Positions 1-32,501 of a stretch of 40,108 nucleotides of DNA are shown here, piece by piece. The position numbers were made by a program, and so were the translations under genes. The notes beneath the pieces were generated by a model that saw only the letters and a program-made list of their open reading frames with translations, was not told where the DNA came from and ran no database searches. This DNA is from an uncultured Bdellovibrionales bacterium (GTDB lineage: Bacteria; Patescibacteriota; Minisyncoccia; Moranbacterales; DUUL01): assembly GCA_964393045.1 (NCBI GenBank), contig CAYMRZ010000002.1, positions 1-40,108 on the forward strand. Reading direction: 5' to 3'. Every line of letters begins with the position of its first letter. Within the stretch, counting starts at the first letter, position 1.

Positions 1-45
1 ACAAGGCATCCGTAGCGGAAGCTGTGGATGGATCACCTCCTTTCT
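1..45 (+). rRNA. rrs: 16S rRNA gene, extreme 3' end (partial; body lies upstream of the window)
   Basis: ACAAGGCATCCGTAGCGGAAGCTGTGGATGGATCACCTCCTTTCT aligns with the universally conserved helix-45/anti-Shine-Dalgarno tail (E. coli ACAAGGTAACCGTAGGGGAACCTGCGGTTGGATCACCTCCTTA). Confidence 0.9.
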
Positions 46-110
46 AGGGAGATTTTGACAAAACCGCAGAAATATTTTTTGCTAATAATCTACACTCTTT
101 ATAGTGGGGT

Positions 111-264
111 TAGAAAAATATTGGTTTTGTCCGCTGGTCGAGTCTGCCTCAACGGCAGGTTCAAAGCTAGGCTTAACTGAGCTAATCCGCCAACTGGCGG
201 AATTCAGTAGTCATACTTTTGTACAGGTATGCTTGGCTCTCGGGCTAATCGCAAAAAGTTGTGA
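111..264 (+). ncRNA. Unclassified structured RNA 'X', copy A, ~65 nt downstream of the 16S end
   Basis: The 24-nt 5' block TAGAAAAATATTGGTTTTGTCCGC is identical in all three copies. The 3' block GGGCTAATCGCAAAAAGTTGTGA is shared with copy B. Hairpins CTGCC/GGCAG (144-158), CCGCC/GGCGG (187-200) and CATAC/GTATG (212-231) are replaced in copies B and C by different sequences that remain complementary. Confidence 0.6.
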
Positions 265-458
265 TTTTTTAACAGATTATTATTAATTTAAGCTCAATTC
301 ACTGAATTGAAGCTAAAGAAAATATTAAATCAAATTAAAAGTGCGGGAATGTTTTTTAAACATTTCATTACAATACAGTAATCTGATGCTCCATTTTTAT
401 GGACATTAACATATTGCTATTATTGCTTTTAATAATAGCTATCAAAAAATAATTTTTT

Positions 459-485
459 AGAGTCGCTTTTTGCGGCTCTTTTTTG
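459..485 (+). terminator. Rho-independent terminator-like hairpin
   Basis: AGAGTCGC-TTTTT-GCGGCTCT followed by a T run. Confidence 0.5.
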
Positions 486-504
486 ACATATTTTTTAGTT
501 TTAT

Positions 505-565
505 AAATTAATATCTCCCTGGAAATAGTTCATTTCGAGGGCTGAAAATGAGGGAGATTTTTAGT
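505..565 (+). repeat. Element 'Y' copy A: conserved bulged hairpin plus T-run
   Basis: ATCTCCCTGGAAATAGTTCATTTCGAGGGCTGAAAATGAGGGAGATTTTTAG. The outer stem is ATCTCCC/GGGAGAT and the inner stem is TGGAAAT/ATTTC(G)A. A second, closely similar copy lies at 34189-34262. Confidence 0.55.
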
Positions 566-695
566 CCACCGCTCTGCTCTGTTTCACTGCCACAATTTGA
601 CGGTTTTTTGTATTCTTACAGAAGTGGATAACTCGTCTTGACTTCCTGTCTCACGAAGCTAATGTGTTGTTGCCTTAATAATTAAGCAACAATAT

Positions 696-881
696 ATGAA
701 CAAAAAAAAGTTCCAAGCCTGGGAAAAAGTCCGAAAAAGCGGACTCACCAATATGTACGACATCAATGAAATACGCTTTATAGCAGTGTCAAAATACGGA
801 CAAGAACTTACCAAGAAAGACTGTTTTGACATTATGCTTCACTATGATAAATGCAAACAAAAATATGCAAAGAAAAATTAG
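696..881 (+). CDS. Small hypothetical protein (61 aa) upstream of the integrase; from memory, the motif SG-TNM-D resembles small phage proteins
   Basis: ORF with an ATG start, overlapping the integrase 5' end. The family assignment is recollection only. Confidence 0.4.
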   Translation: MNKKKFQAWEKVRKSGLTNMYDINEIRFIAVSKYGQELTKKDCFDIMLHYDKCKQKYAKKN

Positions 882-1749
882 TAACACAGCCGAAGAATTT
901 CTAACCTGGCTTCAAGTGGAAAGAAGATTTGCTCAAAGTTCCATAATTAGTTACAGGTCAAGATTTAAATGTTTTATAAGAGACGTGGGTGACATTGAAA
1001 TCGAGAAATTTGGGATGGAACACATTTTCAAGCTCAAGCAGATTTTGTATGAAAGAAAAAATAGTGAAGTTTTTATAGGAGTATGTCTAGCTTGTATTAA
1101 AGGACTTCTGTTCTACTGCAAAAATCAGCTGTCTACTCCGCTCCGCTTCGACCCCAATCAAATAACGATTCCCAAGCGACCCAGAAGAGAGGTCGTTTTT
1201 TTAACCTCAGAAGAAATCAAAAGATTTAAAGAATCTATAAACATTAAACCAATTTATGGTCTGCGGTTCCGCACATTAGTAGAAGTTCTTTTAGCAACAG
1301 GAATGAGAATTTCTGAAGCACTTTCTCTCGACAAAACTTCAATAGACTTCGCAATCAAAGAAGCGAGAATTATTGGAAAGGGGAATAAAGAACGAGTTGT
1401 ATTCTTTACCGATGAAGCTCTGGGATGGATTCAGAGCTACACAAACGCTCGTACAGACGATAATAATGCCTTGTTTATAACTACTGGTAAAAAACCTAGA
1501 AGACTCAGAAATCAAGACTTAACTAGATATTTTAAACGCCAGAGAATATTGGCTGGAATTAACAAAAAAGTTACACCCCATTGCCTAAGACATTGTTTTG
1601 CTTCGCATCTTGCATTTAACAACTGTCCCTTTACTGAAATTAAAACATTAATGGGACATGAAAGACTAGATACAACCATTCGCTACTATGTAGGCCTAAC
1701 TGATAAAGAAAAAGCTAAACAGGCCCATCAACAGTATTTGAAATATTAG
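826..1749 (+). CDS. Tyrosine recombinase/integrase (XerC/D-like) no. 1; the likely true start is ATG 865 (MQRKISNTAEEF...)
   Basis: Catalytic signature visible: ATGMRISEAL (Arg), GKGNKERVV (Lys), HCLRHCFASHL (HxxR), GHERLDTTIRYY (His...Tyr). Confidence 0.85.
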   Translation: MTLCFTMINANKNMQRKISNTAEEFLTWLQVERRFAQSSIISYRSRFKCFIRDVGDIEIEKFGMEHIFKLKQILYERKNSEVFIGVCLACIKGLLFYCKNQLSTPLRFDPNQITIPKRPRREVVFLTSEEIKRFKESINIKPIYGLRFRTLVEVLLATGMRISEALSLDKTSIDFAIKEARIIGKGNKERVVFFTDEALGWIQSYTNARTDDNNALFITTGKKPRRLRNQDLTRYFKRQRILAGINKKVTPHCLRHCFASHLAFNNCPFTEIKTLMGHERLDTTIRYYVGLTDKEKAKQAHQQYLKY

Positions 1750-1955
1750 ATTCTATGGACTTGACAATGTTTTTTAGCTAGCATATAATATAGATAAAGA
1801 TTAATAATTTAACAACAGAATAAAAAGCTCAATACAATGAGCTTCCAAGATTGGAAGTCCCAATACAATGGGGCACAAGGCTTGAAAGAGTCTTCTTTGT
1901 GTCTTATTGTATCGGGATTTTTTTATAAGGCGCAGAGACATTCTGTGCCTTATTT

Positions 1956-2918
1956 ATGTTTTTATTTAATAAAGAAAGATATAGGTTTTCTGCTTGTTTT
2001 CAGCGATATATTGATAGAGCAATTGCTGAGCAAAGCTTGTCTTCTAATTCAATAAAGAAGTATCGAGAGGTATCAAAAAAATTGATTGAAATGATCGGGG
2101 ATATTGATATAAGAAAAATTGATGAAAATGCGATCATTAATCTTAAAAAAGTTTTAAACGAGCCAGTTTTTATTTTTGGTAAAGAGCGCACAAGGAGTCC
2201 AGCAAGACGTAATCATTGCCTAGTTGTTCTTAGGAATGTATTGAAATTTTTAAGAGAAGTGGAAAACTTGCATTCCATCTACGATTTTAATCGTATTAAA
2301 AAATTTAAAGAACGGAATAGACCAGTTGAATTTTTAACAGACGGTGAGGTAAAAATTCTTCTAAATTCGATAAAGGAAAACTGTATCACGAAACTGCGCT
2401 TAAAGACATTTATTATTTGTTTGTTAAGCACGGGAGCGAGGGTGTCAGAGATATTATCACTTAATAGAGAAGATGTTGATTGGGAGAGTGGAGTTGCCAA
2501 CACCAGAGGCAAAGGAGACAAGTCAAACCAGGTCATCTTTAACGAAGTTAGCAAAAAGTATCTGAAAAAATATTTAAGATTAAGAAAATATTTAAGATTA
2601 AGAAAAGATGATTGCCAAGCATTATTTGCAACAACCAATGGAACTCGATGGCAAATGAATTGTGCTGAGAGAGCAGTCAGAAATCAGGGCAAAAGAGCTG
2701 GTATCAGAAAAAGAGTTTATTGTCACTTGTTTAGAAAAACATCTGCATCAAAAATGTTTTTTTCGGGGGCTCCTCTTCCGGTGGTGTCAAAATTCCTTTC
2801 TCATTCTGATTTAGCAACTACGCAGAAATATTATCTAAGGGGAGCAAGCTTTGAAGAGGTCAAGCAATATCATAGCAAGTCAATGAATTTTAATAGTTTA
2901 GTTAAGAGTCACAAGTAA
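1956..2918 (+). CDS. Tyrosine recombinase/integrase no. 2 (tandem with no. 1)
   Basis: STGARVSEIL, RGKGDKSNQV, HLFRKTSASKM and SHSDLATTQKYY give the R-K-HxxR-H-Y set. The N-terminus MFLFNK resembles that of integrase no. 4 (MFLFKK). Confidence 0.8.
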   Translation: MFLFNKERYRFSACFQRYIDRAIAEQSLSSNSIKKYREVSKKLIEMIGDIDIRKIDENAIINLKKVLNEPVFIFGKERTRSPARRNHCLVVLRNVLKFLREVENLHSIYDFNRIKKFKERNRPVEFLTDGEVKILLNSIKENCITKLRLKTFIICLLSTGARVSEILSLNREDVDWESGVANTRGKGDKSNQVIFNEVSKKYLKKYLRLRKYLRLRKDDCQALFATTNGTRWQMNCAERAVRNQGKRAGIRKRVYCHLFRKTSASKMFFSGAPLPVVSKFLSHSDLATTQKYYLRGASFEEVKQYHSKSMNFNSLVKSHK

Positions 2919-3004
2919 AGATTATTTATATATAAAATTAACACACGTTTTCTGTTGCTCACATTTTTCGTGTGTGGTGTGAGCAGCAAAAAACCTAAAA
3001 AAAT

Positions 3005-3802
3005 ATGAGAAGTATGAGAAATCAGCCATTCTGTTGGCAAGAGAAAAAAATAAATAGACTAATACGGTCAAGATATGAAAAATCGCAAAAAACGAAGATG
3101 CTGCTTTTGTATGCCACAATAACCGAAATGGAGAGCGATTTTAATAATAGGGATATTAAGTATTATACAAAAACAATTGCTACTTATTCTGGATTGAGTA
3201 AAGATTTTATCCCAAAAGGATTAAAAAAATTGGAAAAATTAAAAATAATTAAAATAATTTCTGAAAGAGAGAAAGGAAAGTTTAAAGGAAAAAGAATTAA
3301 CTTTACCCCGAAGCTTGTCCTTGAAAGAGAAAGATATAAAAAATCCGTTTCTGGAAAATTCATTAACAGAAATAGCTATTCATCAGAAGATAGTAATTCT
3401 AAAGAAGATAGTAGAAGTAATCAATCTATAAAAAACAAAAAAGAAAATTTTTCAAATTCTAAAAATTCTGAAAAAGAAGACAAAAACCTTGACGAAGAAG
3501 TAGAAAATGTTTTGAATTTTTTTTCTTCAGAAACAAAGAAGCGGGAAGGGTTTTTTCCAAAAACTAATGAGGATGACCATGGTAAAGTGCAATATTTTCT
3601 TGAGGCTTCTAAAGACCCCAATATAAATTGTCGACCATATAACAAGGAAGACGCAAAGGAATTGATAACTTTCTTTTTGGACAATATAAGGAGCTTTGAA
3701 GATCAATACATAGCTATCTCAAACATATTTTGCAAAGAAGTTGTTGACAAGTGGAGAAGAGGGAATATTAAAGAACTCGAATGGAGGATGTCAAAGAATT
3801 AA
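3005..3802 (+). CDS. Hypothetical protein with a probable N-terminal winged-helix DNA-binding domain and a low-complexity acidic/Ser-rich linker; possible replication or regulatory protein
   Basis: The segment IATYSGLSKDFIPKGLKKLEKLKIIKII looks wHTH-like. I recognise no catalytic motif. Confidence 0.35.
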   Translation: MRSMRNQPFCWQEKKINRLIRSRYEKSQKTKMLLLYATITEMESDFNNRDIKYYTKTIATYSGLSKDFIPKGLKKLEKLKIIKIISEREKGKFKGKRINFTPKLVLERERYKKSVSGKFINRNSYSSEDSNSKEDSRSNQSIKNKKENFSNSKNSEKEDKNLDEEVENVLNFFSSETKKREGFFPKTNEDDHGKVQYFLEASKDPNINCRPYNKEDAKELITFFLDNIRSFEDQYIAISNIFCKEVVDKWRRGNIKELEWRMSKN

Positions 3803-4048
3803 AATAAAGCAATTCCTGCTTGAAATTTATTCAAGCAATGTCTTGCAGCTAGACATAAGGTTATTAGAAAAGAGTTAACGAGTTATGAGAAAGCTAAATA
3901 ACTAAAGAAATAATTATGCGAAACAAGATAAAAAGATTAAAAGAAGTTTTTTCTAAAAAAGAACTATCGGAGAATTACAATATTCAAAGAAAAAGCAAGA
4001 TTATAGGCTTAGTAGTATTAAATTTACCTTCAGAATTAAGCTAAAAAA

Positions 4049-5107
4049 ATGATAAAAAATCGAAAAATTCATGATGCTACTATTCCTTTTTTAGGAGGAA
4101 AAAGGAAAATGGCTGATAGAATAACCAAGGAGTTTAAAGGCGAAGTGTTACTGGATGTATTTTCAGGTGGAGGAAGTGTGTCCTTAAAAGGGAAACAATT
4201 AGGTATGAAAGTGATTGCTAATGATATAGCTTACAGGAGCAAAATAATTGGTGAAGCTTTGATAAAAAATTATACAGATAAAATAACAAAGGATGATGTG
4301 TATAGCCTTTTTATTCCTTCAGAAAATAACGGCTTTATTGAGAAGAATTTTGTGCCAAAAGTGTTTATACCGCAAGTGGCAAAAAATTTGGATAATTTCT
4401 TCGCCAATGCCAAAAAAAGAGAAAGTCCCAAAAAAGAATTATTGTTGCTTTTATTGATGAAATACATTTTTAGTCTCAGGCAATATGGAGGTTTTCAGGT
4501 TGGAAGGCAGGACAACGAGATGTTGCTAAAGGGCAAGGAAATAGAACTTCTGGAAGAGGCAAGCGAATCAAGAGGTAAAAAGGTGGTTGGCAATATTTCT
4601 CACCCCCTTCCTATTCTTCTAAAACTCAAGGACCAGATAAATTTTGGAGTATTTAACAATGGAAAAGAAAATGAGATTTATCAAATGGATTGTTTTGAGT
4701 TGTTGGAGATGTTTAAAAGCAATAAGGAGAAAATTGACACCATCTACTTTAACAGCCCGTATTTTAACTCAAGTGTCTACTCCAGTCACTATAAGGTGCT
4801 TGATGAAATTCTGGAGGGTGAAAGAGGATTAGAAATAAAAGATACGGCATTCAACGCTAAAGATGTGATGCAAAATTTTGAAAAACTTTTTGCACTTTCA
4901 GAGTTTATTCCTAAGTGGGTAATCTCAATGGGTTTCAATCCTGCTTCTAATGCTGGGATAAAAGGGGAGGAATTATTAAAGCTGATTCAAAAGTTCAGAG
5001 ATGCAGAGTTATATTTCATGAAACATAATTGGGCAATAAACAATATTGCTTCAAAGACAGGCAAGAGGCAAAGTGAAAACGTAGAGTATTTAATTGTAAC
5101 GAAATAA
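4049..5107 (+). CDS. DNA methyltransferase, Dam/D12-like
   Basis: N-terminal PFLGGKRK, SAM-binding motif LDVFSGGGSV and catalytic-like motif IYFNSPYF ((D/N/S)PPY variant). It sits next to a ParB-like gene, as in many phages. Confidence 0.55.
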   Translation: MIKNRKIHDATIPFLGGKRKMADRITKEFKGEVLLDVFSGGGSVSLKGKQLGMKVIANDIAYRSKIIGEALIKNYTDKITKDDVYSLFIPSENNGFIEKNFVPKVFIPQVAKNLDNFFANAKKRESPKKELLLLLLMKYIFSLRQYGGFQVGRQDNEMLLKGKEIELLEEASESRGKKVVGNISHPLPILLKLKDQINFGVFNNGKENEIYQMDCFELLEMFKSNKEKIDTIYFNSPYFNSSVYSSHYKVLDEILEGERGLEIKDTAFNAKDVMQNFEKLFALSEFIPKWVISMGFNPASNAGIKGEELLKLIQKFRDAELYFMKHNWAINNIASKTGKRQSENVEYLIVTK

Positions 5108-5109
5108 AA

Positions 5110-5745
5110 ATGAGCGAAAATAAAATATATAGCGATATTCAGATGGTGGAAACAAATAAGTTGAAACCGAATGATTATAACCCAAACATTATGACTGATG
5201 AACAGTTTGATTCATTGGTTCAGGATTTCAAGGAGAATGGGTTTGTAGGCCAGCCTATTATTGCAACGAAAGACAATATCATAATTGATGGCGAGAATCG
5301 TTGGAGGTGTGCAGGTTTCCTGAATTACAAAAAAGTTCCGGTGGTGTATTTTAATCCCAAAAACAAAAACCATCAGAAGATGCTAACTATTGCTTGGAAT
5401 GCCAAGAGAGGAGAATTTAGTCCGACAAAATTGGCTGGTATAATTCAAGAATTAAATCAAAAACATACTTTGGATGAATTAAGTGGGAAATTAGGGTTCA
5501 GTGTGGAACATTTAAAAGATACGATGTCGATGTCTGAATTAACGCCTGAGTTTGTAGAAAAATTAAAAAAAGAAGCGGAAGAACAAGAAAAGGAGATCCC
5601 GACAGTAATGAATTTTGCAGTTTCGAGAGAGCAGGAGAAACTAATTAATGAGGCGTTAGAAATGAGTATAGGCAAGAGTAAAGGAGAAAAATTAAGTTAT
5701 ATTTGTTCTGCATATTTAAAGCAAAAACCGAAAAATGGCAAATAA
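5110..5745 (+). CDS. ParB N-terminal (ParB/Srx nuclease-like) domain protein
   Basis: KLKPNDYNPN...GFVGQPIIATKDNIIIDGENRWRCAG matches the ParB-N signature, including the DGxxR box. Confidence 0.65.
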   Translation: MSENKIYSDIQMVETNKLKPNDYNPNIMTDEQFDSLVQDFKENGFVGQPIIATKDNIIIDGENRWRCAGFLNYKKVPVVYFNPKNKNHQKMLTIAWNAKRGEFSPTKLAGIIQELNQKHTLDELSGKLGFSVEHLKDTMSMSELTPEFVEKLKKEAEEQEKEIPTVMNFAVSREQEKLINEALEMSIGKSKGEKLSYICSAYLKQKPKNGK

Positions 5746-6316
5746 AAAATCCAAATCCAAAACCGCAGTCGGGAGATTAAGTGTTGAAGGGGTAAAGAGT
5801 GTCAAAAAGAATCTAAAGGTTCAAAGGAAGCACGGGGCGTTTGAATTTTTGAGAAAAAATGTAGCACCTGTGCCAAGTTGCAACCAGTGTATACTTGCAA
5901 GCGAATGTGAGTATTATCAAAAAGGCCAGAAGCAGTGTAAGGCAATATTGAAGCTTCAAAAAGAAATATATGATGAGATATGCCAACTTGAATACATTCA
6001 GCAAGCGGATAAATATTTAGTGGACCGCTTTGTGAAGAACATCTGCTTTTTGATTATTATTGAACGATGGGTTGCTAATGTGGGACCCTTTCAAGTCAAG
6101 GATAACGGAGTTGATGTCCAGCCAATATTAAAAGTCAAAACCAGTTATGAGCGGTTAGTTTTAAAGCAAGCCGATGCTATCGGAGTTGGACCGCAAGCCA
6201 GGGCTAGATTGAATTTGACCAACGTCCAATCTTTTTGTTTTGCAGAGGCCTTGCAAAAAGCAAAGCCAATAAATAATTATGGTAATTCAAATTTTAAAGA
6301 TGAGAAAAAGAACTGA
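5735..6316 (+). CDS. terS: Probable terminase small subunit (P27-like)
   Basis: Lies immediately upstream of the large terminase and overlaps it. The C-terminal ...QADAIGVGPQARARLNL resembles the P27-family 'GLTPasRsRL' tail. Confidence 0.5.
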   Translation: MANKKSKSKTAVGRLSVEGVKSVKKNLKVQRKHGAFEFLRKNVAPVPSCNQCILASECEYYQKGQKQCKAILKLQKEIYDEICQLEYIQQADKYLVDRFVKNICFLIIIERWVANVGPFQVKDNGVDVQPILKVKTSYERLVLKQADAIGVGPQARARLNLTNVQSFCFAEALQKAKPINNYGNSNFKDEKKN

Positions 6317-7847
6317 AATAACGAATAAAAAATTGCTGGAATATAGGAACGACATCTGTGTTTTTTTGGAAGAGCAGTATTATTTGGAATCAGGAAAATT
6401 GATTAAACTGGAACCCATTCAAAAGAAGATTCTAAGAGATATTTTCCAAACAAAAAACAAGAACGGCTTGCGTGCATATAATGATGCATTAATAGGAATG
6501 ATTAAAAAGTCAGGGAAAAGTTCTTTGGCAAGCGGAGTTGCATTGTATATGCTATTCTGTGATCCCATATTCGAGGAACCGAATGAAATCTATTCTATTG
6601 CTTCTGATAAGGATCAGGCAACGATTATTTGGCGGAAAACAAAGCGAGCTATCGAACGCAATCCCATATTACTGGGTAGCGTTAAAATTTATCGCGATTC
6701 TATCTTAGTGCCTTCAACGAGAAATATTTACAAAGTTTTAAGCTCAGATAGTTTTTCAGCGCATGGGCTAAATCCAACTTGTGTTATCGGTGATGAAATT
6801 TGGAATCAAAAAGACAGAAATCTGTTAGATGCATTGCAATTTTCTCCAACCAGGAAGCAGCCGCTAAGATTTATTGTGACTTATGCTGGAACCGACACTA
6901 CGTCTATTCTCTATGAGTTATATGACAAAGGATTGCGCGGGGAAAATCCTAAGATGTATTTTCATTGGTCGCACAAACCAGAAGTAAGCTGGATAACCAA
7001 GGATTTTTTAGAGGAGAAAAGAAAAGAACTTCCGCCAGCAGTTTATCAGAGATTTTGGGAAAATCGCTGGGCTGGAGGAGAAAATTCTTTTTTTACCAGA
7101 GAGGATGTTATGCAATGCCGGGATGAATTTTTAAAGCCGGTATTTCAGGGAAAAGAAGGAGTTCAATATTTTTACGGATGTGATTTAGGGCTTGTCAAAG
7201 ATCGAACAGTTTCTGTGATTTTGCACTACAGCAGAGAAGAAGGTGTGGTAATAGTAGACAGCGTTAAAACTTGGGAAGGAAGCAGGAACAATCCAGTAAA
7301 AATTGCCGACATTGAAGAGGATATGATCTTGGCCTCGCAAAATTTTCCAAGACTTCGTATTGTGGTCGATCCTTGGAATCTCAAAGGAACGGTCGAAAAA
7401 TTAAAACGGTATTGCCGAATAGAAGAATTTACTTTCACAAGCTCAAATGTGGAGAAAATAAGCCGTAATTTATACTATTTTGTCCATAATGGTCTAGTTA
7501 AATTTTTCCCTCATAAAGAATTAGAAAGAGAACTTCTTTCATTGAATTTAGAGCAGAAAAGTTATGGATATCGCTTCGATCATCCCAGTTCCCAGTTTTC
7601 AGATCATGCCATTGCGTTATCAATAGCTCTTATGCAAGTGGCGGTTATTAAAAAACCCACAGCGGGGATAATTTTTACGGGAAGTCCAAGTTTTGAAGAA
7701 TTCGAAAGGAAATGGGCAAGGAGTGAGAGGGCAGAGCCCAAAATAGTCAAAAAAGAGAGGAAAAAGGAAAAGGATGAAAAAGAGAACAAAAAAGACTTTT
7801 TTAAGCTTTCTGAATCAGATAAGTGGAGAAAATCAATGAATAGGTAA
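6279..7847 (+). CDS. terL: Phage terminase large subunit
   Basis: Walker A-like GMIKKSGKSSLASG and Walker B-like TCVIGDEIW, followed by a C-terminal nuclease-like half (FYGCDLGLVKDRTV...DHAIAL). Size is ~520 aa. An alternative start is ATG 6300. Confidence 0.7.
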   Translation: MVIQILKMRKRTEITNKKLLEYRNDICVFLEEQYYLESGKLIKLEPIQKKILRDIFQTKNKNGLRAYNDALIGMIKKSGKSSLASGVALYMLFCDPIFEEPNEIYSIASDKDQATIIWRKTKRAIERNPILLGSVKIYRDSILVPSTRNIYKVLSSDSFSAHGLNPTCVIGDEIWNQKDRNLLDALQFSPTRKQPLRFIVTYAGTDTTSILYELYDKGLRGENPKMYFHWSHKPEVSWITKDFLEEKRKELPPAVYQRFWENRWAGGENSFFTREDVMQCRDEFLKPVFQGKEGVQYFYGCDLGLVKDRTVSVILHYSREEGVVIVDSVKTWEGSRNNPVKIADIEEDMILASQNFPRLRIVVDPWNLKGTVEKLKRYCRIEEFTFTSSNVEKISRNLYYFVHNGLVKFFPHKELERELLSLNLEQKSYGYRFDHPSSQFSDHAIALSIALMQVAVIKKPTAGIIFTGSPSFEEFERKWARSERAEPKIVKKERKKEKDEKENKKDFFKLSESDKWRKSMNR

Positions 7848-7923
7848 ATTTTTAGTAAAGAGATAGCGAGATTTAATTCGCATAATGGAATGTTATGTAT
7901 CCATTTATTATTAAAATGTTAAT

Positions 7924-8301
7924 GTGAAAATTATTATTCAATTTACAAAGCCTGTATCGAAAAGCAGGCTGTTGTCGTGTCTTAAAGACGCAAAAAATAG
8001 AATTCCCGCCTTCAGAGAATATCTATTCGAAATTAAAAAGGGGAAATATTTATTTAAAGACAAAGAAGGGGAAATTGTGACCAGGTTTAATTTTGTGCTT
8101 GACGAAGAGAATCATCTGGCTTTTTTTGATGATCTTGAGGGTGAATTAAGGGATCAAGTCGAGAGGATGCTAATATTTGATTTCCCGGAAAGGGTGGGAG
8201 AAGAGTGTTTTGCGTGTAATAAGGAGGAAAATTGGAAGCTGTATTTTAGCATGTCGGAATGGTTTCTTATAGAAAGAGGGTATTTTTTTAAAATAGAGTG
8301 A
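7924..8301 (+). CDS. Hypothetical protein (125 aa, GTG start)
   Basis: ORF only; no recognisable motif. Confidence 0.35.
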   Translation: MKIIIQFTKPVSKSRLLSCLKDAKNRIPAFREYLFEIKKGKYLFKDKEGEIVTRFNFVLDEENHLAFFDDLEGELRDQVERMLIFDFPERVGEECFACNKEENWKLYFSMSEWFLIERGYFFKIE

Positions 8302-8428
8302 GACAGAGAAAAACTAATTGAAATGGAGTCATTTTATGTTTTTCAAGGAGCCAAAAAAGCTCTAAAATTAACTTGACTTTATTTCCTTGCAAGCTATTGT
8401 TGTGGTGTAAAGAGTTAAGAGCAAAACA

Positions 8429-9289: not shown

Positions 9290-9338
9290 AAAATATTGAC
9301 CAAAGTTCTTTATAGGTTTAATATATAAGCAAAAGATA

Positions 9339-9430
9339 CCAGCTGTGACATTACCAAGTTAAGCACTTGGCCTAGTTATGCACAAAAAGGAGCAACTCTC
9401 CGAAAAGTGCGTAACTAGTGTCACAGCTGG
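9339..9430 (+). ncRNA. Candidate structured RNA or recombination site: 92-nt three-way junction
   Basis: Perfect 12-bp closing stem CCAGCTGTGACA/TGTCACAGCTGG (9339-9350/9419-9430). It encloses hairpin CCAAGT/ACTTGG and stem CTAGTTATGCAC/GTGCGTAACTAG, which is capped by GGAG/CTCC. Confidence 0.4.
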
Positions 9431-9492
9431 GACAATCTTAGTAGGGGGTTGTTCCTTTATGTATCTTGAGTTAATAATAATTATTTTAAAAG

Positions 9493-10533: not shown

Positions 10534-10648
10534 AGACTGGTTTCATACTCACAAGAAGTTGGTGTAAGAATATCACCTCTTTGTTTTTAGTGTCTGTTTG
10601 GTGGTTCTTAGGGGATGGAATAAAATAATTCTTAAAATTTATAAAAAT

Positions 10649-11126: not shown

Positions 11127-11129
11127 AGG

Positions 11130-15030: not shown

Positions 15031-15031
15031 T

Positions 15032-17695: not shown

Positions 17696-17804
17696 GAATA
17701 AGAAATTTAAAAAATATCTAGAAAATTTAATCTGCCAGTTAAAACAATAAACGAAGCCTTATGGCATTATTCAAAATAATTCTATAAAAATTCACTGAGT
17801 TTAT

Positions 17805-18827
17805 ATGAAAAATAAGCCCATTAACAACAAAAAACTTTTTTTCACAGGCTTAGCGTTGTTCCTTATTGGAAGGACAATATTCTACTTAGTAGGAGGATTA
17901 ATAGGGGAGTCAGTTGCAGTAGCCTTTGATCTTGTTTCTTTGCCAATGTTAGCTATAGCAATAATGAGGTATTTTGTTAAATTGTTTTCGAAAGATGAAG
18001 GTAGCAACGAAGATCAAAAAGAATTAAATGAAAAAATCAAAAATGAAGAGGCAAGGCAGAAACACGTTGAGAATAAGAAAAATAAAATATTTGTTTTAAA
18101 GAAAAAAAAGAAATATACAACAATAGCGTCTATTTTAATTTTTCTATCTTCAGTTTTAACAATATTTTTTGTTTTCTTTTTTGGTATTTCCAAATTAGCT
18201 TTAGTAGGAGTATTGGTTTATCTTTTCTTGGCCTATTTTGTTTATAGGGAAAAAAAATGGGCTATTGTTGCTGTTGCGATTTTTTTTACACTTGATAAAA
18301 TATTGCAAGGGATAGAGGAGCCAAATATGGCAAAAAGCATTTTCTTTTGGTGGATAGCCTTTATGTCTGTATTTTTGGGAGCTTATAGGGAGTTGTCCAA
18401 AGAAAAAAAGATAATAAATAATAAGATTTCCCAAGAGAGAAAGGAAGATAGGCGAAGAGGGAATGGCAATAGAAATAATTCTAAGCCTTTACTTTTATCC
18501 CTTTTCGGAATTGTAATTTTAATAAGTGGTGTAATTTTTTATTGGTTTGCTGTTAGGCCTGCTAATATAAGAAAGGCTTGTTCTTTAGTTGAGATAAAAA
18601 CATATTCTCAAGAAGAAAAGGATGATGCCAAAAAATATCTTCAAGAAAGTTGCCCCAACTTTGAAAGCTTGGCTGGTAGAGTTATACTTAGAAATGAAGG
18701 CAGTCAAGAATGTTTAAATAAACTGGATATTTTATATGCGCCAACAGGTAATGAAAATCAAACCAGATCTGCTACAGATGAAGAATATAAAGAATGTTTA
18801 AGAAGGAGTGGATTACAGACGGAATAA
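17805..18827 (+). CDS. Polytopic membrane protein with a Cys-containing C-terminal extracytoplasmic domain, function unknown
   Basis: Several hydrophobic helices (FFTGLALFLIGRTIFYLVGG, ILIFLSSVLTIFFVFFF and others). Confidence 0.45.
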   Translation: MKNKPINNKKLFFTGLALFLIGRTIFYLVGGLIGESVAVAFDLVSLPMLAIAIMRYFVKLFSKDEGSNEDQKELNEKIKNEEARQKHVENKKNKIFVLKKKKKYTTIASILIFLSSVLTIFFVFFFGISKLALVGVLVYLFLAYFVYREKKWAIVAVAIFFTLDKILQGIEEPNMAKSIFFWWIAFMSVFLGAYRELSKEKKIINNKISQERKEDRRRGNGNRNNSKPLLLSLFGIVILISGVIFYWFAVRPANIRKACSLVEIKTYSQEEKDDAKKYLQESCPNFESLAGRVILRNEGSQECLNKLDILYAPTGNENQTRSATDEEYKECLRRSGLQTE

Positions 18828-18840
18828 ATAAAATTCAAAA

Positions 18841-19446
18841 ATGAAACCTATTTATTTTGGCAAAAAGGAATCAGGAGAAGACCTGTATTTGGATTTGGAA
18901 AAAGAGGGTATTCATTTTATTTCGCTTCTGGGGGCAACTGCATCAGGCAAGAGCGTTTTTCATGAAAATTTATATAAAGAATTGACTGATAAATATACAC
19001 CCGAAGAACTCGGGTTTATTTTTATGGATATGACCAGGGTAGATTTTGTTGATTGGAGATCGCCTGAATATCTTATAAAACCAACTATTGTTGAGCCTGA
19101 TGAGGCCTTGAATGTATTAGGGAATGTCAAAGATGATAGCAAAATAATTTTTATCCATATTGAGGAATGTGATATGGCCTTTATTAATAGAGCCAAAATG
19201 GAGAAAGGTCTGGATAAAATCAGGAAAAAAGAAAATATCTTCTTAGTTTATTCTACTAGCCGAATAGATCAAAGTTATTTAAAGGACTGGATGGATAAAT
19301 ATTTTGATTTAAATATTATCTTCAGAACAGCCGCAAAAGAAGATTCCCAATTTCTTCTGGGAAATGAGAACGCTTTTAATTTTGAAGATCCAGGAGAGAG
19401 GATTTTGGCTTTTAACGATAAACAGATAAAACTAGTTCCATTTTAG
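18841..19446 (+). CDS. Stand-alone mini FtsK/SpoIIIE(HerA)-type P-loop ATPase (201 aa)
   Basis: LLGATASGKSVFHENLYKELTDKYTPEELGFIFMDMTRVDF parallels the FtsK motor Walker A region. IIFIHIEECDM is the Walker B equivalent, and FLVYSTSR parallels the ATQRP segment. Confidence 0.5.
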   Translation: MKPIYFGKKESGEDLYLDLEKEGIHFISLLGATASGKSVFHENLYKELTDKYTPEELGFIFMDMTRVDFVDWRSPEYLIKPTIVEPDEALNVLGNVKDDSKIIFIHIEECDMAFINRAKMEKGLDKIRKKENIFLVYSTSRIDQSYLKDWMDKYFDLNIIFRTAAKEDSQFLLGNENAFNFEDPGERILAFNDKQIKLVPF

Positions 19447-19464
19447 TAAAGAGTTATTTATTAT

Positions 19465-22062
19465 ATGAAAAGTAGTTACAGAATAAAAACAATTAAGAAT
19501 GCAGATTTATATATCAAAAATTGGGCTAAAAGTCGGAACGAAAATTGGCTGAATTTTTTGTGTAGTAAAATTATCGAAACAAGAAAACCAGCGAATGAAC
19601 AATTAATAAGCAAGACATATAAATTATTTCAAAGGGAATATGAGCTGGTTGAAAAAGCAGATGTAAAAAAGTCGAATAGCCCTCAGGGGAATAATATAAG
19701 CGATAGAAATGAAACCACAGAAAAACCAAAATCTGTAACATTATTATCTCTTACTCATATTGAAGGAGTAAATGCCTTAAAACAAGATGAACCAATAAAT
19801 TTTCATCCTAAATTAACAGTTATTTATGGTCGCAATGGAGCTGGAAAATCTGGATATATTAGAATACTTAAAAAAATAAGTAAAGCAAAAACTGCTGAGG
19901 ATATTTGGTCAGATATTCGAGAAAAAAAAGAAAAAAATCAGTGCAAAGCAAAGATTTCTTTAGCGGTTGATGGAAAAAACAAGGATTTTATGTGGTGCGG
20001 AGAGGAGTTATCAGCTCCTTTTAATTTTATTAAAATATTTGATGGCAAGTGTATTCCTATTTATCTTAACGAAAAAATAGATTTTTCATTAACTCCATTT
20101 GGTTTGGAATTATTTTCTTTTATCACGGCTGTTTTTGTGGAGATAAGAAAAAAACTAGATGAAGACATAGAAAGCAAAAAGCAACAAAACAATCCTTCAA
20201 ATATATTTACGGAAGACACAAAAACTTTCAATGTTATAAACGAAATTAGTGCAGATACAAATCTAGATGACATTTTTGAATCGGTTAAAAATGTAAAAGA
20301 AATACAAAAAAAGCTAAGTAATGCAAGGAGCGAGTATAAAAGAATTATTGGTATAGAAGACAGGCTAAAGGTTTTACAAAATGAAGAAAAAGTTATAACA
20401 CGGCTGTTGAATTATTTGGATAAAATAAATGAGAATTTCAACGAAAAGAAAATAGCAGAATATAAAAAAGAGGTAAGCGAATGGATGAAAAAGGAAAAAG
20501 AAGCTAAAAACAAAAGCTTAACAAATTTTTCCAAATATGGAATCGAGAAAGCAGACTTTAATGAGTGGCATAATTTTATTTCAAACGCTGAACAGTATAT
20601 AAAAATTTTAGATAAACCAGCATATCCTTCGGCTAAAGAAAAGTGTATTTATTGCAACCAGGAGCTATCTGAAGAAGCAGTTAGTTTAATACAAAGTTAT
20701 AGAGATTACATAAACAGTGCTGCGGAGAAGCTATTGCAGGAAATAAATCTCAAACAAAGAGAGTACTGTGCAAATGCCGAGTCACTAAGCTACTATAATT
20801 TCACAGAAGACAAAAAGGATTTGAATAATATATTAGGTGAAGAGTTATGCAAAAAGGTGTTTGATTTCTTAGAGGAAGCCAGTCCATTTATTGGTAATTT
20901 CATCGATGGTTTGAAAAATAAAAATTTAGACAAACAAGGATATTGCTCGGAGTATAATTTGAGAAAAGAAACTCAAGAAGTAAAAAATAACCTGCAGGAA
21001 AAAATAAAGCAAGCCAAGTCTGATAAAGAGAAGTTCAGCAGTAAGACAAGAGAATTATTTAACGAGATAAGAAATTTAGATGACTTAATAAAATTAAATA
21101 AGAATAAAAATGCTATCAGTGATTATGTTGATAAATTGAAGTGGATAAGAAAAGCGGATGGCTTGTTGCCAAAATTAAATACACAGCCTGTGACTAATTG
21201 TCAGAAAAAAGCTTGGAAGAGACTTGTGTCTGACAGTTTTGAAAAAAAATTTCAAAAGGAATGTGAAAATTTATCAACGCCAGAAATCGAGCTGTCTTTT
21301 CCTGCTGAATATGGAGTTCAAAAAAGAGCAAAATCTCTTGAAGGCTTGAAAAATATAGACGAGTTTTTGAGTGAAGGGGAGCAACGCTCAGTAGCATTGG
21401 CTGACTTTTTTGCAGAAATTGGAACTGACGATGTTAATGCTCCCGTTATTTTTGACGACCCTGTAAATAGTATGGATGATTTAAGAAGGGATAAACTAGC
21501 TCAACGGATATATGAGGAATCGCAAGAACGTCAACTTATTGTTTTTACACACGACATTTTATTTGTAAGTCATCTTTATGATAAAGTTTACAATAATGAT
21601 AAAAATAAAGTTGAACCAACGTTGGCTAATTTTCACTGGATGGAAAAAGACAGAGGATATTGTGGAAAAATGACAGAAAATGCTTGTCCGAGGATGGACA
21701 AATTAGGGAGAATACGAGGCGAAGTAGAGCAGATAATTAAGAGGGTGGCAAACTCCAACGCTTTTGAAAAAGAATCACAAATTGGAGAGGCATATTCAGG
21801 AATGAGGGAAATGCTTGAGTGCATTGTTGTCGAAAAACTTTTCAACAGGGTAGTTGAAAGATGGAGCGAAAGGATGAAAATGCATAATCTTACTAAAGTC
21901 GTTTTAGATTCTGAAAAGTATAAGAAAACAAGAGCTTTATTTGAAGAATTTAGCGGATATATAAAAGGACACAGTCATTCGGCTGTTAGCAAACAAGATT
22001 TTCCAGACTTAGACAAACTTAAAGAAGATTTTAAAAAAGTAAAAAAGCTGTATGAACAATAA
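19465..22062 (+). CDS. RloC-like ABC ATPase (AAA_13 type) with a long coiled-coil insert, CxxC zinc hook and putative C-terminal anticodon-nuclease region
   Basis: Walker A YGRNGAGKSG, ~500-aa coiled-coil insert with KCIYCNQEL, signature LSEGEQRS, Walker B VIFDDPVNSMD, H-loop VFTHD. The C-terminal GMREMLE...H pattern is reminiscent of the PrrC/RloC Arg-Glu-His triad. Confidence 0.55.
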   Translation: MKSSYRIKTIKNADLYIKNWAKSRNENWLNFLCSKIIETRKPANEQLISKTYKLFQREYELVEKADVKKSNSPQGNNISDRNETTEKPKSVTLLSLTHIEGVNALKQDEPINFHPKLTVIYGRNGAGKSGYIRILKKISKAKTAEDIWSDIREKKEKNQCKAKISLAVDGKNKDFMWCGEELSAPFNFIKIFDGKCIPIYLNEKIDFSLTPFGLELFSFITAVFVEIRKKLDEDIESKKQQNNPSNIFTEDTKTFNVINEISADTNLDDIFESVKNVKEIQKKLSNARSEYKRIIGIEDRLKVLQNEEKVITRLLNYLDKINENFNEKKIAEYKKEVSEWMKKEKEAKNKSLTNFSKYGIEKADFNEWHNFISNAEQYIKILDKPAYPSAKEKCIYCNQELSEEAVSLIQSYRDYINSAAEKLLQEINLKQREYCANAESLSYYNFTEDKKDLNNILGEELCKKVFDFLEEASPFIGNFIDGLKNKNLDKQGYCSEYNLRKETQEVKNNLQEKIKQAKSDKEKFSSKTRELFNEIRNLDDLIKLNKNKNAISDYVDKLKWIRKADGLLPKLNTQPVTNCQKKAWKRLVSDSFEKKFQKECENLSTPEIELSFPAEYGVQKRAKSLEGLKNIDEFLSEGEQRSVALADFFAEIGTDDVNAPVIFDDPVNSMDDLRRDKLAQRIYEESQERQLIVFTHDILFVSHLYDKVYNNDKNKVEPTLANFHWMEKDRGYCGKMTENACPRMDKLGRIRGEVEQIIKRVANSNAFEKESQIGEAYSGMREMLECIVVEKLFNRVVERWSERMKMHNLTKVVLDSEKYKKTRALFEEFSGYIKGHSHSAVSKQDFPDLDKLKEDFKKVKKLYEQ

Positions 22063-22861: not shown

Positions 22862-22916
22862 CTAAATTTGACTTCTTGGTAAGGCAAGGTAACATCGGAC
22901 AAATTATAAAAATCCG

Positions 22917-23828
22917 ATGTTTTTATTTAAAAAACAAAAATCAATAAAGTTAAGCGAAGCGGGGAAACAATATCTGGACTTTTGTGAACTGGAAAAGGAA
23001 ATGAGTCCTTTTTCCATCTATGAATACAGCAAAATAATAAAGTGGACTGTTGATATTCTTGGCGATCTGAATATCCAAAATTTAAATGAAGAATGTATTG
23101 TCCAACTCAAGAAAGAATATAACAGACGAAGATTAAAACCATCAACCAGGGCTAATAATCTTTCTGTTGTTAGGGAAATTTTAAAATTTTGCCAAGAAGA
23201 AATGAGTTTGAAAGTTATGAATTTTGAAAAGATAAAAAGACCGAAAATTCCCAAAAGAAGAGTTGAATATCTAACTGAAGAAGAGTTAAAACATTTTTTT
23301 AATGCTATTCCTAAAAAAAGCACTAGAGATTTTAGATTCAGAACATTATTGGCAATTTTAATTTCTACAGGTTGCCGTATTGGCGAGGCATTAGATTTAA
23401 AAATTCAGGATATAGATTGGGAAAATAAAGAGGTAATAATAATTGGCAAGGGGAATAAAGAAAGAAAGTTGTACTTTACTGATTGGTCTTTAAAGTGCAT
23501 AAAAGAATATATAAAAAAGAGGGGGTATGAAGGCAAGTTTATTTTTGTAGCCGAAGGCAAGAAAAATCGCTGGGACAGAAACGATGCCCAGAGAAATTTT
23601 AGAAATTATCGTAAGAAACTAGGGTTGCCATCTCATATCACTGCTCATACCATAAGGCACAGCTTTGCCACACTTTTAATGAAAAAAGGTATTAGCTTGG
23701 GACACATCCAGGTATTACTTGGACATTCAAGTGTGCAAACTACCAGCAGGTATTATTTGGGGATTTTAAATGATGACGAAGCGAAAAGTGCTCACAGGAG
23801 AGGATTGGGTATGGATTCGTGGTTGTAA
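22917..23828 (+). CDS. Tyrosine recombinase/integrase no. 4
   Basis: STGCRIGEAL, GKGNKERKLYF, HTIRHSFATLL and GHSSVQTTSRYY. It is paralogous to no. 2 (shared MFLF-K N-terminus). Confidence 0.85.
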   Translation: MFLFKKQKSIKLSEAGKQYLDFCELEKEMSPFSIYEYSKIIKWTVDILGDLNIQNLNEECIVQLKKEYNRRRLKPSTRANNLSVVREILKFCQEEMSLKVMNFEKIKRPKIPKRRVEYLTEEELKHFFNAIPKKSTRDFRFRTLLAILISTGCRIGEALDLKIQDIDWENKEVIIIGKGNKERKLYFTDWSLKCIKEYIKKRGYEGKFIFVAEGKKNRWDRNDAQRNFRNYRKKLGLPSHITAHTIRHSFATLLMKKGISLGHIQVLLGHSSVQTTSRYYLGILNDDEAKSAHRRGLGMDSWL

Positions 23829-23866
23829 TATTTGATTTAAATCAAGGCTTGTTCTAGTCTTTAGGT

Positions 23867-24712: not shown

Positions 24713-24718
24713 TTTTAA

Positions 24719-24746
24719 TTCCTCCCACGAATCACCTCCTTTCTAG
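24719..24746 (+). repeat. 28-nt island-end motif TTCCTCCCACGAATCACCTCCTTTCTAG; its last 16 nt duplicate the 16S 3' tail
   Basis: Identical to 38329-38356. ATCACCTCCTTTCTAG is identical to 32-47 at the genuine 16S end. Confidence 0.8.
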
Positions 24747-24808
24747 GGAGTTTTTGACAAAACCGAGAAAATGTTTTTCATTATAGCTTACACTCTTTAT
24801 AGTGGAGC

Positions 24809-24977
24809 TAGAAAAATATTGGTTTTGTCCGCCCGCCTGCAACGCTTTGCGTAGCAATGCGGGCAAGGCTGGTCGAGTCCCGCTAAGCGGGAGAACAGCT
24901 AGCTTAGCAGTGCGAATACTGTTAGTGGATTTTGTACAATCCACGGGCTCATACGGGCTAATCGCAAAAAGTTGTGA
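24809..24977 (+). ncRNA. Structured RNA 'X', copy B
   Basis: Same 5' and 3' blocks as copy A. It has an extra hairpin GCCCGC...GCGGGC (absent in A, present in C) and stems TCCCGC/GCGGGA (24878-24892) and GTGGATT/AATCCAC (24925-24944). The preceding spacer (24747-24808) is homologous to 48-110, including TTGACA and CTCTTTATAGTGG. Confidence 0.6.
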
Positions 24978-24991
24978 TAAACTTAAATAAT

Positions 24992-25019
24992 AAAACACCT
25001 CTACTTTGGAGGTGTTTTA
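24992..25019 (+). terminator. Rho-independent terminator after X-B
   Basis: AAAACACCTC-loop-GAGGTGTTTT with a trailing T-rich run. Confidence 0.6.
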
Positions 25020-25154
25020 TGTTATATTAAAATTATCGAAACAATAGATTTAAGCTAAAAGACAAAAATAGGACCAAAAAAGGTACCTGACCCCTTTTCT
25101 CTAACCGAAGCTAATGTGTGATTGCCCCAGTACAATAACTATACGGGGTAAACC

Positions 25155-25241
25155 ATGAAAACAAGCAATCAAAAACGAACCATCCAAAATACAAAAGAAG
25201 AATTTCTCACTTGGCTTCAAGTGGAAAGAAGATTCGCCTGA
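25155..25241 (+). pseudogene. Relic of an integrase no. 1-type gene (first 28 codons only)
   Basis: MKTSNQKRTIQNTKEEFLTWLQVERRFA* matches ...NTAEEFLTWLQVERRFAQ of the 826-1749 product. The upstream GAAGCTAATGTGT (25108-25120) matches 655-667. Confidence 0.7.
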
Positions 25242-25255
25242 AGCTCAAGCTATCA

Positions 25256-25290
25256 CAAAAAACACCCGCGAGGTGTTTTTTTATTTTTTT
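25256..25290 (+). terminator. Rho-independent terminator
   Basis: AAAAACACC-CGCGA-GGTGTTTTT followed by TTATTTTTTT. Confidence 0.6.
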
Positions 25291-25375
25291 CAATTTGACT
25301 TGGTCGACAATATAAGATAGCATTGACTAGAAGTACATTGAACAATCAACTGAATAGAAAAAAAGGGGGTAATAT

Positions 25376-27617: not shown

Positions 27618-27629
27618 CAAAAGCGACAA

Positions 27630-32463: not shown

Positions 32464-32501
32464 TAGACAAAGTCCTTGACCGTTGCAGTTAACTTAATCC
32501 G

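Follow-up and report, generated by a model that had tools for sequence, protein, structure and literature searches.

We analyzed a 40,108-bp contig of a Moranbacteria-like bacterium of the candidate phyla radiation (CPR), the whole of which is referred to here as the window, and which begins 43 nt before the 3' end of a 16S rRNA gene. Comparison of the window with related loci and contigs (denoted by L-numbers, such as L001, L003, and L079) makes it likely that the attachment site of integrative modules in Moranbacteria-like CPR bacteria is formed by the final bases of the 16S rRNA gene. The modules would range from a phage-like element of ~25 kb to single-gene units of 1.6 kb. An earlier note on this DNA had proposed tandem accretion of elements at the 16S end, each bringing a replacement for the 3' part of its target, and the junctions and arrays present in the related loci support that proposal. 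The order it listed, namely 16S end, spacer, a putative RNA termed X (copy X-A), terminator, palindrome Y, small open reading frame (ORF), the integrase genes int1 and int2, a 28-nt motif, a second spacer and X copy (X-B), and an int1 relic, was found in its entirety (Table 1). Beyond the range that it covered lie a third copy, a decayed core site, a second Y, and a relic of the X 3' end, and two further tyrosine recombinase genes, int3 and int4, were not on its list.

Bases 1-43 correspond to positions 1491-1533 of the Rfam SSU_rRNA_bacteria model (37.8 bits, E=2e-9). Helix 45 and the tail are identical to those of genomes named Candidatus Moranbacteria or Moraniibacteriota (L001, L003, L012, and others), and the closest relatives of int1 carry the same names. 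No tRNA, tmRNA, or other Rfam family was found in the window beyond the 16S end. The 16S tail ATCACCTCCTTTCTAG(GGAG), together with X, is present three times, at 32, 24731, and 38341. The first two copies of ATCACCTCCTTTCTAG occupy 32-47 and 24731-24746, and their identity reaches 20 nt with the GGAG included (32-51 versus 24731-24750); these direct repeats matching the 16S 3' end bound a first unit, unit 1. The spacers that follow (48-110 and 24747-24808) are ~85% identical, the subsequent 24-nt block TAGAAAAATATTGGTTTTGTCCGC (111-134 and 24809-24832) is identical in these and in the third copy, and the X 3' ends (241-265 and 24954-24978) agree at 100% over 25 nt. The 28-nt motif at 24719-24746 recurs without change in the third copy, joined to X-C, where 61 nt of the spacer are missing by a deletion that spans CTAG-GGAG to GGAG-CTAG. 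X-B is a mosaic whose 5' 56 nt are identical to X-C and whose 3' 25 nt are identical to X-A, which points to gene conversion among the X copies. The three copies share exactly the 16S tail, and the homology to 16S ends there.

The same junction recurs outside the window. A 25-nt junction, CTCCCACGAATCACCTCCTTTCTAG, was found in 57 metagenome contigs, with different DNA upstream each time and the spacer and X always after it. The identical junction is also present in the genome contig L016, in which a real 16S end and its trailer are followed by 8.6 kb of genes, then by TTCCTCCCACGAATCACCTCCTTTCTAG, and then by a different spacer. A near-identical junction in the genome contig L008 differs solely upstream of CTCCCACGAAT. 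Homology to 16S starts at (A)TCACC in every junction, and upstream of the 11-nt left arm the information content is near zero, with no extended conserved arm. The resulting core is a dyad of 11-7-11 layout in which the left arm, CTCCCACGAAT, and the right arm, TTTCTAGGGAG (reverse complement CTCCCTAGAAA), match at 8 of 11 positions, and the 7-bp centre, CACCTCC, is the anti-Shine-Dalgarno sequence. Cores of the Xer, Cre, and FLP types have this geometry, and we infer that the 7-bp centre would be the overlap within which strands are exchanged. A scan of the window for the 29-nt core, allowing up to 10 mismatches, returned 6 sites compared to 0.1 expected in shuffled sequences. The site at 23-51 has a right arm and centre identical to those of the downstream copies; only this site and that at 24722-24750 are intact, so that unit 1 (24.7 kb) alone could still excise.

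The earlier note had offered two models of the crossover. The first takes the tail as the core and gives every element an X of its own; it is borne out by the invariance of the tail core over the 57 junctions. The second takes X as the target gene and places the crossover in its 5' block, TAGAAAAATATTGGTTTTGTCCGC, with the spacer and the 16S tail belonging to the attP arm. The identity of this 24-nt block in all three window copies would suit the second model, but the block proved to be the 3' strand of an RNA hairpin, H0, co-varying with its partner strand across genomes, and copies in other arrays (L016, L040, and L072) differ in this region. Moreover, the invariant part of the 57 junctions is the tail core, and the 16S sequence breaks exactly at its left edge. 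We consider the second model highly improbable.

Examination of the related loci revealed the same succession of tail, spacer, X, terminator, and Y after the real 16S end. An alignment of 32 copies of the spacer and X yielded a consensus of 19 base pairs, 16 of them with compensatory changes. The long spacer hairpin H0 contributes, as its 3' strand, what the earlier note had called the conserved X 5' block. X itself contains a GCUG/CAGC helix around an invariant GGUCG and a hairpin whose five pairs form in all 29 of 29 copies; its conserved loops are GCCAAAUAA and, in that hairpin, UUGUACA. The many G-U pairs on the + strand indicate an RNA that is transcribed in the same direction as 16S. At its 3' end, X has ~24 nt (GGACTAAYCGCAAAAGNTTGTGAT) that are reverse-complementary to a block (ATCACAATTTTTTGCGRTTAGTCC) situated 150-250 nt upstream of 16S, and the two form a helix of ~23 bp (-34 to -46 kcal/mol) in L001, L003, L010, L014, L040, and L072, which are all six loci having the leader on the contig. 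Compensatory changes in this helix include G:C in L003 versus A:U in L010, as well as TTCCC/GGGAA in L001, and the leaders of L040 and L072 still fit the displaced trailer as well as the proximal one. This pairing, the structure, and the position after 16S together indicate that X is the structured 3' trailer of the 16S precursor. X is thus not an independent, free-standing small-RNA gene; from the pairing in relatives, it is predicted to close a leader-trailer helix around 16S.

Trailer A, which follows the intact 16S end, keeps all the conserved helices and is the pre-16S 3' trailer delivered by unit 1. The leader of the source genome, off the contig, would be expected to contain a block similar to ATCACAA(C/T)TTTTTGCGATTAG(C/T)CC and to pair best with X-A and X-B. 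Other identities for X were tried and rejected. A tRNA or tmRNA was not detected; no Rfam family matched in the window at the gathering threshold, and at E≤10 in bases 1-700 only the 16S end was credible; and resemblance to signal recognition particle RNA, 6S RNA, or RNase P RNA was absent by eye.

The tail-plus-trailer copies might in principle be features acting at the RNA level, such as processing or termination cassettes that serve many operons from a downstream position and were multiplied by duplication rather than by site-specific integration. In keeping with such cassettes, the structure of the trailer RNA is conserved, a T run comes after the small hairpin that CTCC...GGGAG can form, and Y is terminator-like. 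However, the trailer 3' block lacks a pairing partner away from the 16S leader, and wherever contigs reach far enough the modules occur only in arrays headed by a 16S end. Decay of the distal copies is evident from the X relic at 34131, the degenerate core at 34905, and the 61-nt deletion of copy C. The modules are regularly flanked by genes for Xer-like recombinases, and the core has the symmetry of a recombinase site (11-7-11). An origin at the RNA level is thus very unlikely. As a separate observation, CTCC TTTCTA GGGAG with its T run (32-51 and 24736-24750) was flagged as terminator-like, and the precursor RNA, before it is processed, could hold its anti-Shine-Dalgarno bases paired with the first trailer bases in a small hairpin.

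Y sits 200-270 nt past the tail in L001, L003, L010, L013, and L040, and its candidate roles are either a terminator-like hairpin or a recombinase-binding site. We considered Y as a second crossover site, as it shares the half-site consensus with the core, but this role is doubtful, as Y also trails displaced trailers (L047). No insert bounded by two Y sites was found among the compared loci, and the terminator reading of Y is equally possible.

The mechanism we propose for integration at the 16S end is as follows. Xer-like "simple" tyrosine recombinases of the int1/int4 clade would recombine the ~29-bp core CTCCCACGAAT-CACCTCC-TTTCTAGGGAG of a circular module with its chromosomal partner, the 16S end TGTGGATGGAT-CACCTCC-TTTCTAGGGAG. 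Insertion would separate 16S from its own 3' trailer (spacer hairpin and X), which must pair with the 5' leader, and for this reason each module would carry its own trailer and terminator right after the core. These would be placed behind 16S and restore its transcription unit, while the old trailer, now behind the left arm of the module, would move to the far end. As both partners have the same right arm, the 16S-side junction would again be a perfect chromosomal-type core that can be reused, and reuse would build a co-oriented array whose distal sites and trailers decay. The distal junction would be an element-type core, making the excision of one or several units formally possible. For unit 1, the excised junction is predicted to read TTTTAATTC-CTCCCACGAAT-CACCTCC-TTTCTAGGGAG-ATTTTGACAAAACCGCAG and the emptied site GCTGTGGATGGAT-CACCTCC-TTTCTAGGGAG-TTTTTGACAAAACCGAG. 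The decay that grows outward in the window (int1 relic, degenerate core, X relic, and spacer deletion of copy C) fits an older age of the distal parts, and the order of arrival would follow it.

Arrays of such modules are found in other genomes. Eleven contigs hold at least two modules, at spacings of 1.6, 1.6, 2.1, 2.4, 3.6, 4.3, 6.7, 6.8, 7.6, 8.6, and 24.7 kb; eight of these have a real 16S end with an attR-type core 1.6-24.7 kb downstream, and the other three have two non-16S cores. The phage-like element, with the gene order small ORF, int1, int2, D12 methylase, ParB, TerS, TerL, and int3, follows the 16S trailer in L001, L009, L010, L012, L013, L014, and L017 (70-84% protein identity). 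In L008, L038, and L061 it follows an attR-type core instead, indicating that another unit lies between the element and 16S there. The core is closely preceded by genes of the int4 type, and the trailer is closely followed by small-ORF/int1-type genes; in other contigs Fic, NUDIX, TOTE, or a 269-aa protein abuts the core. In L045 and L064 (1.6 kb each) and in L067 (2.4 kb), the unit separating a real 16S end from a core encodes no recombinase.

These co-oriented recombinase-less units raise the question of whether the 16S tail is a platform, like an integron or the target of integrative mobile elements exploiting Xer (IMEX), at which a resident Xer-like int1 captures integrase-less cassettes; the modules would then form a cassette array instead of stacked autonomous elements. 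The single NUDIX, Fic, and TOTE genes abutting the core, the high conservation of int1 and its synteny with 16S, and a site consisting of a simple core without arm sites are further points in favor. On the other hand, the position of int1 is internal to the array, past the insertion point, and int1 is displaced 4-6 kb from 16S in L012 and L014 or found behind attR-type cores in L008, L038, and L061, indicating that it travels in the unit. In addition, integron-integrase models scored far below their cut-offs (TIGR02249, 93 versus 265 bits; NF011946, 62 versus 435), the units have their own terminators, and attC-type hairpins were not seen. A resident platform is for these reasons unlikely, and it overlaps the mechanism proposed above, of which it is a variant rather than an exclusive alternative.

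We also weighed whether the contig is a chimera joined through short repeats by the assembler, as it starts inside 16S and contains repeats of up to 56 nt at 100% identity. Yet dozens of independent assemblies, made by different projects with different assemblers, show the same architecture, the window copies differ from each other outside short blocks, and the junction between the int1 relic and the block containing the tyrosyl-tRNA synthetase (TyrRS) gene recurs in L079 and L080. An assembly artefact is accordingly scarcely credible.

Related arrangements extend to viral contigs. L088, a 49-kb IMG/VR contig, encodes TerL, an HNH protein, and an int1-like integrase (39% identity). Some 220 nt past the integrase gene it carries CAAT-CACCTCC-TTTCTAGGGAG, a trailer of the short class, a terminator, and then ORFs of no known family. 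By its sequence this site may be attP-like, but it could equally be an attR with a flanking array. Two other viral contigs begin or end at the real 16S end of other taxa, and in one of them a tyrosine recombinase gene adjoins the trailer. As for a free viral form, the exact 23-nt Moranbacteria junction is absent from IMG/VR, and scans of IMG/VR with TerL and int1 peptides gave no close match. More broadly, we lean slightly toward the view that Xer-like recombinases of CPR bacteria and some phages adopted the anti-Shine-Dalgarno 16S end as a universal attachment site, with elements carrying a host-matched trailer that lets ribosome biogenesis continue after each insertion and with reuse building integron-like arrays of defence and toxin modules right behind 16S, the integrase-less cassettes being moved in trans.

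The products of int1 to int4 all match PF00589, are Xer-like, with XerD and XerA as their nearest solved structures, keep the catalytic residues, and score below the cut-off of every curated model. The catalytic set of int1, R-K-HxxR-H-Y, is complete in alignment with XerD, and its homologues comprise more than 120 clusters at 63-86% identity. The small ORF, a candidate accessory factor, precedes int1-type genes in L001, L003, L010, L013-L015, L025, L038, L040, and L061. Homologues of int4 (55-71% identity) lie 0.2-4.6 kb upstream of an attR-type core in ~15 contigs. The recombinase acting at the core may be of the int1 type, of the int4 type, or both as a pair, and unit 1 is probably composite.

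Genomic islands and prophages integrate in the 3' ends of tRNA and tmRNA genes, tandem arrays included, and such islands have reportedly been surveyed by K. P. Williams. The modules resemble them in the tyrosine recombinase, the crossover inside a stable-RNA gene, the replacement of the displaced 3' part by the element, the displaced fragment left as a direct repeat at the far end, the stacks arising from reuse of the regenerated site, and the defence-rich cargo. They differ in that the target is the extreme 16S 3' end with its anti-Shine-Dalgarno sequence, and that the replaced part is mostly a ~200-nt precursor trailer pairing with the leader rather than mature RNA. Furthermore, the recombinases are small, Xer-like, and without an arm-binding domain, and the site is a bare ~29-bp core.

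IMEX elements (CTX, TLC, and the gonococcal island) use XerC/D at dif. Simple 11-(6-7)-11 sites, Xer-type chemistry, tandem arrays at one site, and small recombinase-less elements are common to both systems. Here, however, the site is the 16S end rather than dif, and the units carry a functional RNA replacement. Dependence on a recombinase supplied from elsewhere would apply to the units of L045, L064, and L067, which have none, whereas many other units encode Xer-like enzymes, which may belong to the host or to the elements. The cumulative GC skew rises monotonically over the window, with no skew switch. Integrons share with the modules co-oriented arrays of small genes beside an Xer-related recombinase, and single-gene units ending in a conserved recombination site. 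In contrast to integrons, the modules show no integron-integrase signature, the recombinase gene is internal to the array, the units bring terminators of their own, and the sites are conventional duplex-type dyads with one conserved 29-bp core rather than folded attC hairpins.

In the rrn operons of E. coli, the leader and trailer of pre-16S rRNA form an RNase III stem. The ~23-bp helix of 16S-flanking blocks with compensatory changes is comparable, and its cleavage by RNase III or another processing enzyme is putative. Unlike in E. coli, no tRNA or 23S genes follow the 16S gene here, and the trailer is a conserved multi-hairpin RNA with no Rfam match. Eukaryotic ribosomal DNA has its own specific elements, R1, R2, and Pokey, which likewise exploit a conserved essential rRNA gene as a safe, universal landing site. 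They are, however, retrotransposons or transposons within 28S copies of a multicopy array, which they inactivate, and they lack the recombinase-mediated insertion at a gene end with functional repair proposed here. A full-text search of the literature found no report of a 16S 3'-end attachment site or of this trailer RNA.

Several findings weigh against the proposed integration at the 16S end. Neither an unoccupied allele of the same locus nor an excised circle was found among the compared loci. The circles that the earlier note had suggested seeking did not appear as terminal overlaps in L001-L078, and a re-check of all compared loci gave only L079 (25 nt, ambiguous). A search for an empty site by way of the downstream Germane/Gmad2 gene returned a sole close homologue, at the very start of a 2-kb contig, and an all-against-all comparison of post-site flanks returned only a partial case, L012 versus L047, differing by 1.2 kb. 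Across species, the element proteins show about the same conservation (70-85%) as TyrRS, such that the large element could be an old, vertically inherited resident. The junction of the int1 relic with the TyrRS block is common to another species, and part of the structure is therefore ancient. The dyad and its 7-bp overlap are read from sequence only, and the off-contig position of the source genome's leader is a further point on this side. Finally, the resident-looking block at 27.4-33.6 kb means that the distal copies need a second explanation, namely a second, decayed 16S-end locus like that of L079.

The evidence concerning this block is as follows. The relic at 25188-25246 is 81% identical to int1 (883-941) and is preceded by a relic of the int1 promoter region at 25106-25119; L079 has the same relic fused to the same TyrRS block. 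The stretch 27458-33614 is collinear with L079/L080 at 72% nucleotide identity, and the order AMP-binding enzyme, aldehyde dehydrogenase, TyrRS is also kept in a distant Parcubacteria contig, L081, without tail or X motifs. The GC content of this stretch is 37-43%, compared to 30-35% in unit 1. The synteny and the shared relic make the block look resident, and it is probably resident chromosome; the shared fusion further indicates that the succession of trailer, int1 relic, and block predates the split of the two species. The possibility that all DNA between copies B and C is cargo was rejected for 27.4-33.6 kb on account of the synteny.

In L079 (GCA_053999975.1 JBMXUF010000182.1; 7840-8017 and 1-130), a 16S leader block, TTCACAATTTTTTGCGATTA, lies past the TyrRS block and is joined within 24 nt to a remnant of helix 45, the 16S tail, and a trailer. 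This site is a 16S locus whose body has been deleted. The ends of the L079 contig overlap by 25 nt inside X, which would mean a circular molecule or, alternatively, two copies of X not resolved by the assembler.

The window accordingly appears to consist of two zones, of which the first, zone 1 (1-25.3 kb), comprises unit 1 and the old int1 relic at the live 16S end, and here the proposal that newcomers push older elements outward fits. It need not hold for the third copy, which, given the resident-looking block, may not have been displaced from the first site at all. Zone 2 (34.1-38.5 kb), made up of one NUDIX unit and one Fic-TOTE unit, may lie at a second 16S-end locus that is now extinct. 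Within zone 2, 34131-34227 is collinear with the X end, terminator, and Y of L003. The segment 34364-34924, with its NUDIX gene and decayed core, aligns at 74.7% identity with L026 (2598-3156), which has a NUDIX gene and an intact core, the alignment running through the latter, and Fic or TOTE homologues lie directly upstream of a core in L028, L030, L063, and L065. The GC content is 30-35% up to 25 kb, 37-43% over 25-34 kb (~42% at 30-34 kb), and 42% at 39-40 kb. Nearly all genes of the window are on the + strand.

To our knowledge, the integration targets of bacteria have so far been tRNA genes, tmRNA genes, and a few protein genes. If integration at the 16S end is true, rRNA genes join them, and do so in an extreme form, as the crossover appears within the most conserved functional sequence of the ribosome; CPR organisms usually have only one rRNA operon. 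It would also explain contigs that break or look odd just downstream of 16S in these lineages, and in Moranbacteria-like CPR genomes the position behind 16S would be the place to seek accessory genes and defence genes. The 16S trailer with its leader pairing constitutes a new structured RNA, a conserved one, and bears on how CPR bacteria process unlinked rRNA genes. The need for an imported trailer to match the leader of the host offers a testable handle on element host range. The compact Xer-like recombinases with their ~29-bp site are a possible tool for DNA insertion at a conserved locus, only the last ~16-20 nt of the site being 16S-derived and the flanking arms being lineage-specific.

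Table 1. Features of the 40,108-bp window.
Feature	Position	Strand	Basis or remark
16S rRNA gene 3' end (helix 45 and anti-Shine-Dalgarno tail)	1..47	+	Rfam match, identity to relatives
attL/attB-type core TGTGGATGGAT-CACCTCC-TTTCTAGGGAG	23..51	+	core scan; left arm is 16S helix 45
Trailer A: spacer hairpin H0 (54-131) and X-A	48..265	+	alignment, covariation
Intrinsic terminator after trailer A	459..489	+	terminator prediction; also given as 459-479
Y1 palindrome CTCCCTGGAAA-TAGTTCA-TTTCGAGGGCT	515..543	+	half-site consensus same as core site
Promoter-like conserved region before small ORF/int1	637..669	+	91% identity to L079 1465-1497; kept in L003/L004
Small ORF, 61 aa, overlapping int1 start by 17 nt	696..881	+	sole match phrog_8677, function unknown
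int1, Xer-like tyrosine recombinase	865..1749	+	PF00589 2.9e-36
int2, second Xer-like tyrosine recombinase	1956..2918	+	PF00589, catalytic residues
Phage-like core: replication-initiator-like protein, D12 methylase, ParB_N, TerS, TerL, 125-aa protein, int3	3005..9289	+	
int3, tyrosine recombinase	8429-9289	+	PF00589
Defence cargo: type III restriction-modification genes, OLD-family ATPase/nuclease, PDC-S06	11288..22062	+	
int4, Xer-like recombinase near right end of unit 1	22917..23828	+	PF00589, catalytic residues
attR-type core B CTCCCACGAAT-CACCTCC-TTTCTAGGGAG, intact	24722..24750	+	core scan, metagenome junction match
Trailer B: spacer and X-B, mosaic	24747..24978	+	repeat comparison
Terminator after trailer B	24990-25020		
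Relic of older int1-type element: promoter fragment and int1 5' end	25106..25246	+	
AMP-binding enzyme, aldehyde dehydrogenase, tryptophanyl-tRNA synthetase (TrpRS)-like protein, TyrRS, 335-aa protein	27458..33614	+	
X 3' relic (34131-34144), terminator (34156-34179), Y2 (34199-34227)	34131..34227	+	
NUDIX gene and decayed attR-type core (34905-34933, 9 mismatches)	34365..34933	+	
Fic (SoFic-like) and TOTE primase-helicase cargo	35064..38269	+	
Third copy: 28-nt motif, identical, joined to X-C	38329-38545	+	61 nt of spacer missing
attR-type core C	38332..38360	+	left arm and centre intact; right arm lost by 61-nt deletion; 4 mismatches
Trailer C (X-C), without 5' strand of H0	38358..38545	+	repeat comparison
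Small AbrB-like ORF	38949-39125		

Some further observations concern the recombinases and their neighbors. Two recombinase genes, at L016 5306-6215 and L025 (oriented) ~1465-2370, encode an N-terminal part 77-80% identical to int1 and a C-terminal part 64-78% identical to int4. They may be recombination hybrids or intermediate members of the family, and the gene in L016 is frameshifted. A PDB chain of 401 residues, 9i5v_14, matched the catalytic domain of int1 (E=1.7e-16) under the label "Ribosome-associated translation inhibitor RaiA," which may be a naming mix-up. In L003, a gene for a trypsin-like protease lies between Y and the small ORF/int1 pair. CPR rRNA genes are known to carry insertions with LAGLIDADG endonucleases, and the 16S gene of L003 has an insertion (5711-8544) with an ORF for such an endonuclease (7907-8341). 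A LOOT RNA (RF03000, 90.8 bits) is encoded directly after the int3 homologue in L001 (19798-19924) and L002 (10144-10270); it was not detectable at the matching position of the window (9290-9492). Right after int3, the ORF at 9493-10533 encodes a 346-aa protein in which imperfect 24/45-nt tandem repeats (9891-10028) specify a Glu/Lys/Ala-rich stretch, probably a coiled-coil.

Others concern the distal region. The cluster at 25376-33613 encodes an amidohydrolase, an Fe-ADH (iron-containing alcohol dehydrogenase), a LuxE-like AMP-binding enzyme, a LuxC-like aldehyde dehydrogenase, a divergent TrpRS-like paralogue, and TyrRS. Acyl-activating and acyl-reducing enzymes are thus paired with two genes of the class-I aminoacyl-tRNA synthetase type, in an order partly kept in distant Parcubacteria. 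Just upstream of the Fic gene, 34953-35054 contains two 44-nt direct repeats of 86% identity (TTTTCTTATATAA...TATAGGTAATATA), which resemble a promoter or operator region that has been duplicated. A palindrome of 23+23 nt (38699-38744), 96% complementary and with no spacer, lies between trailer C and the AbrB-like ORF.

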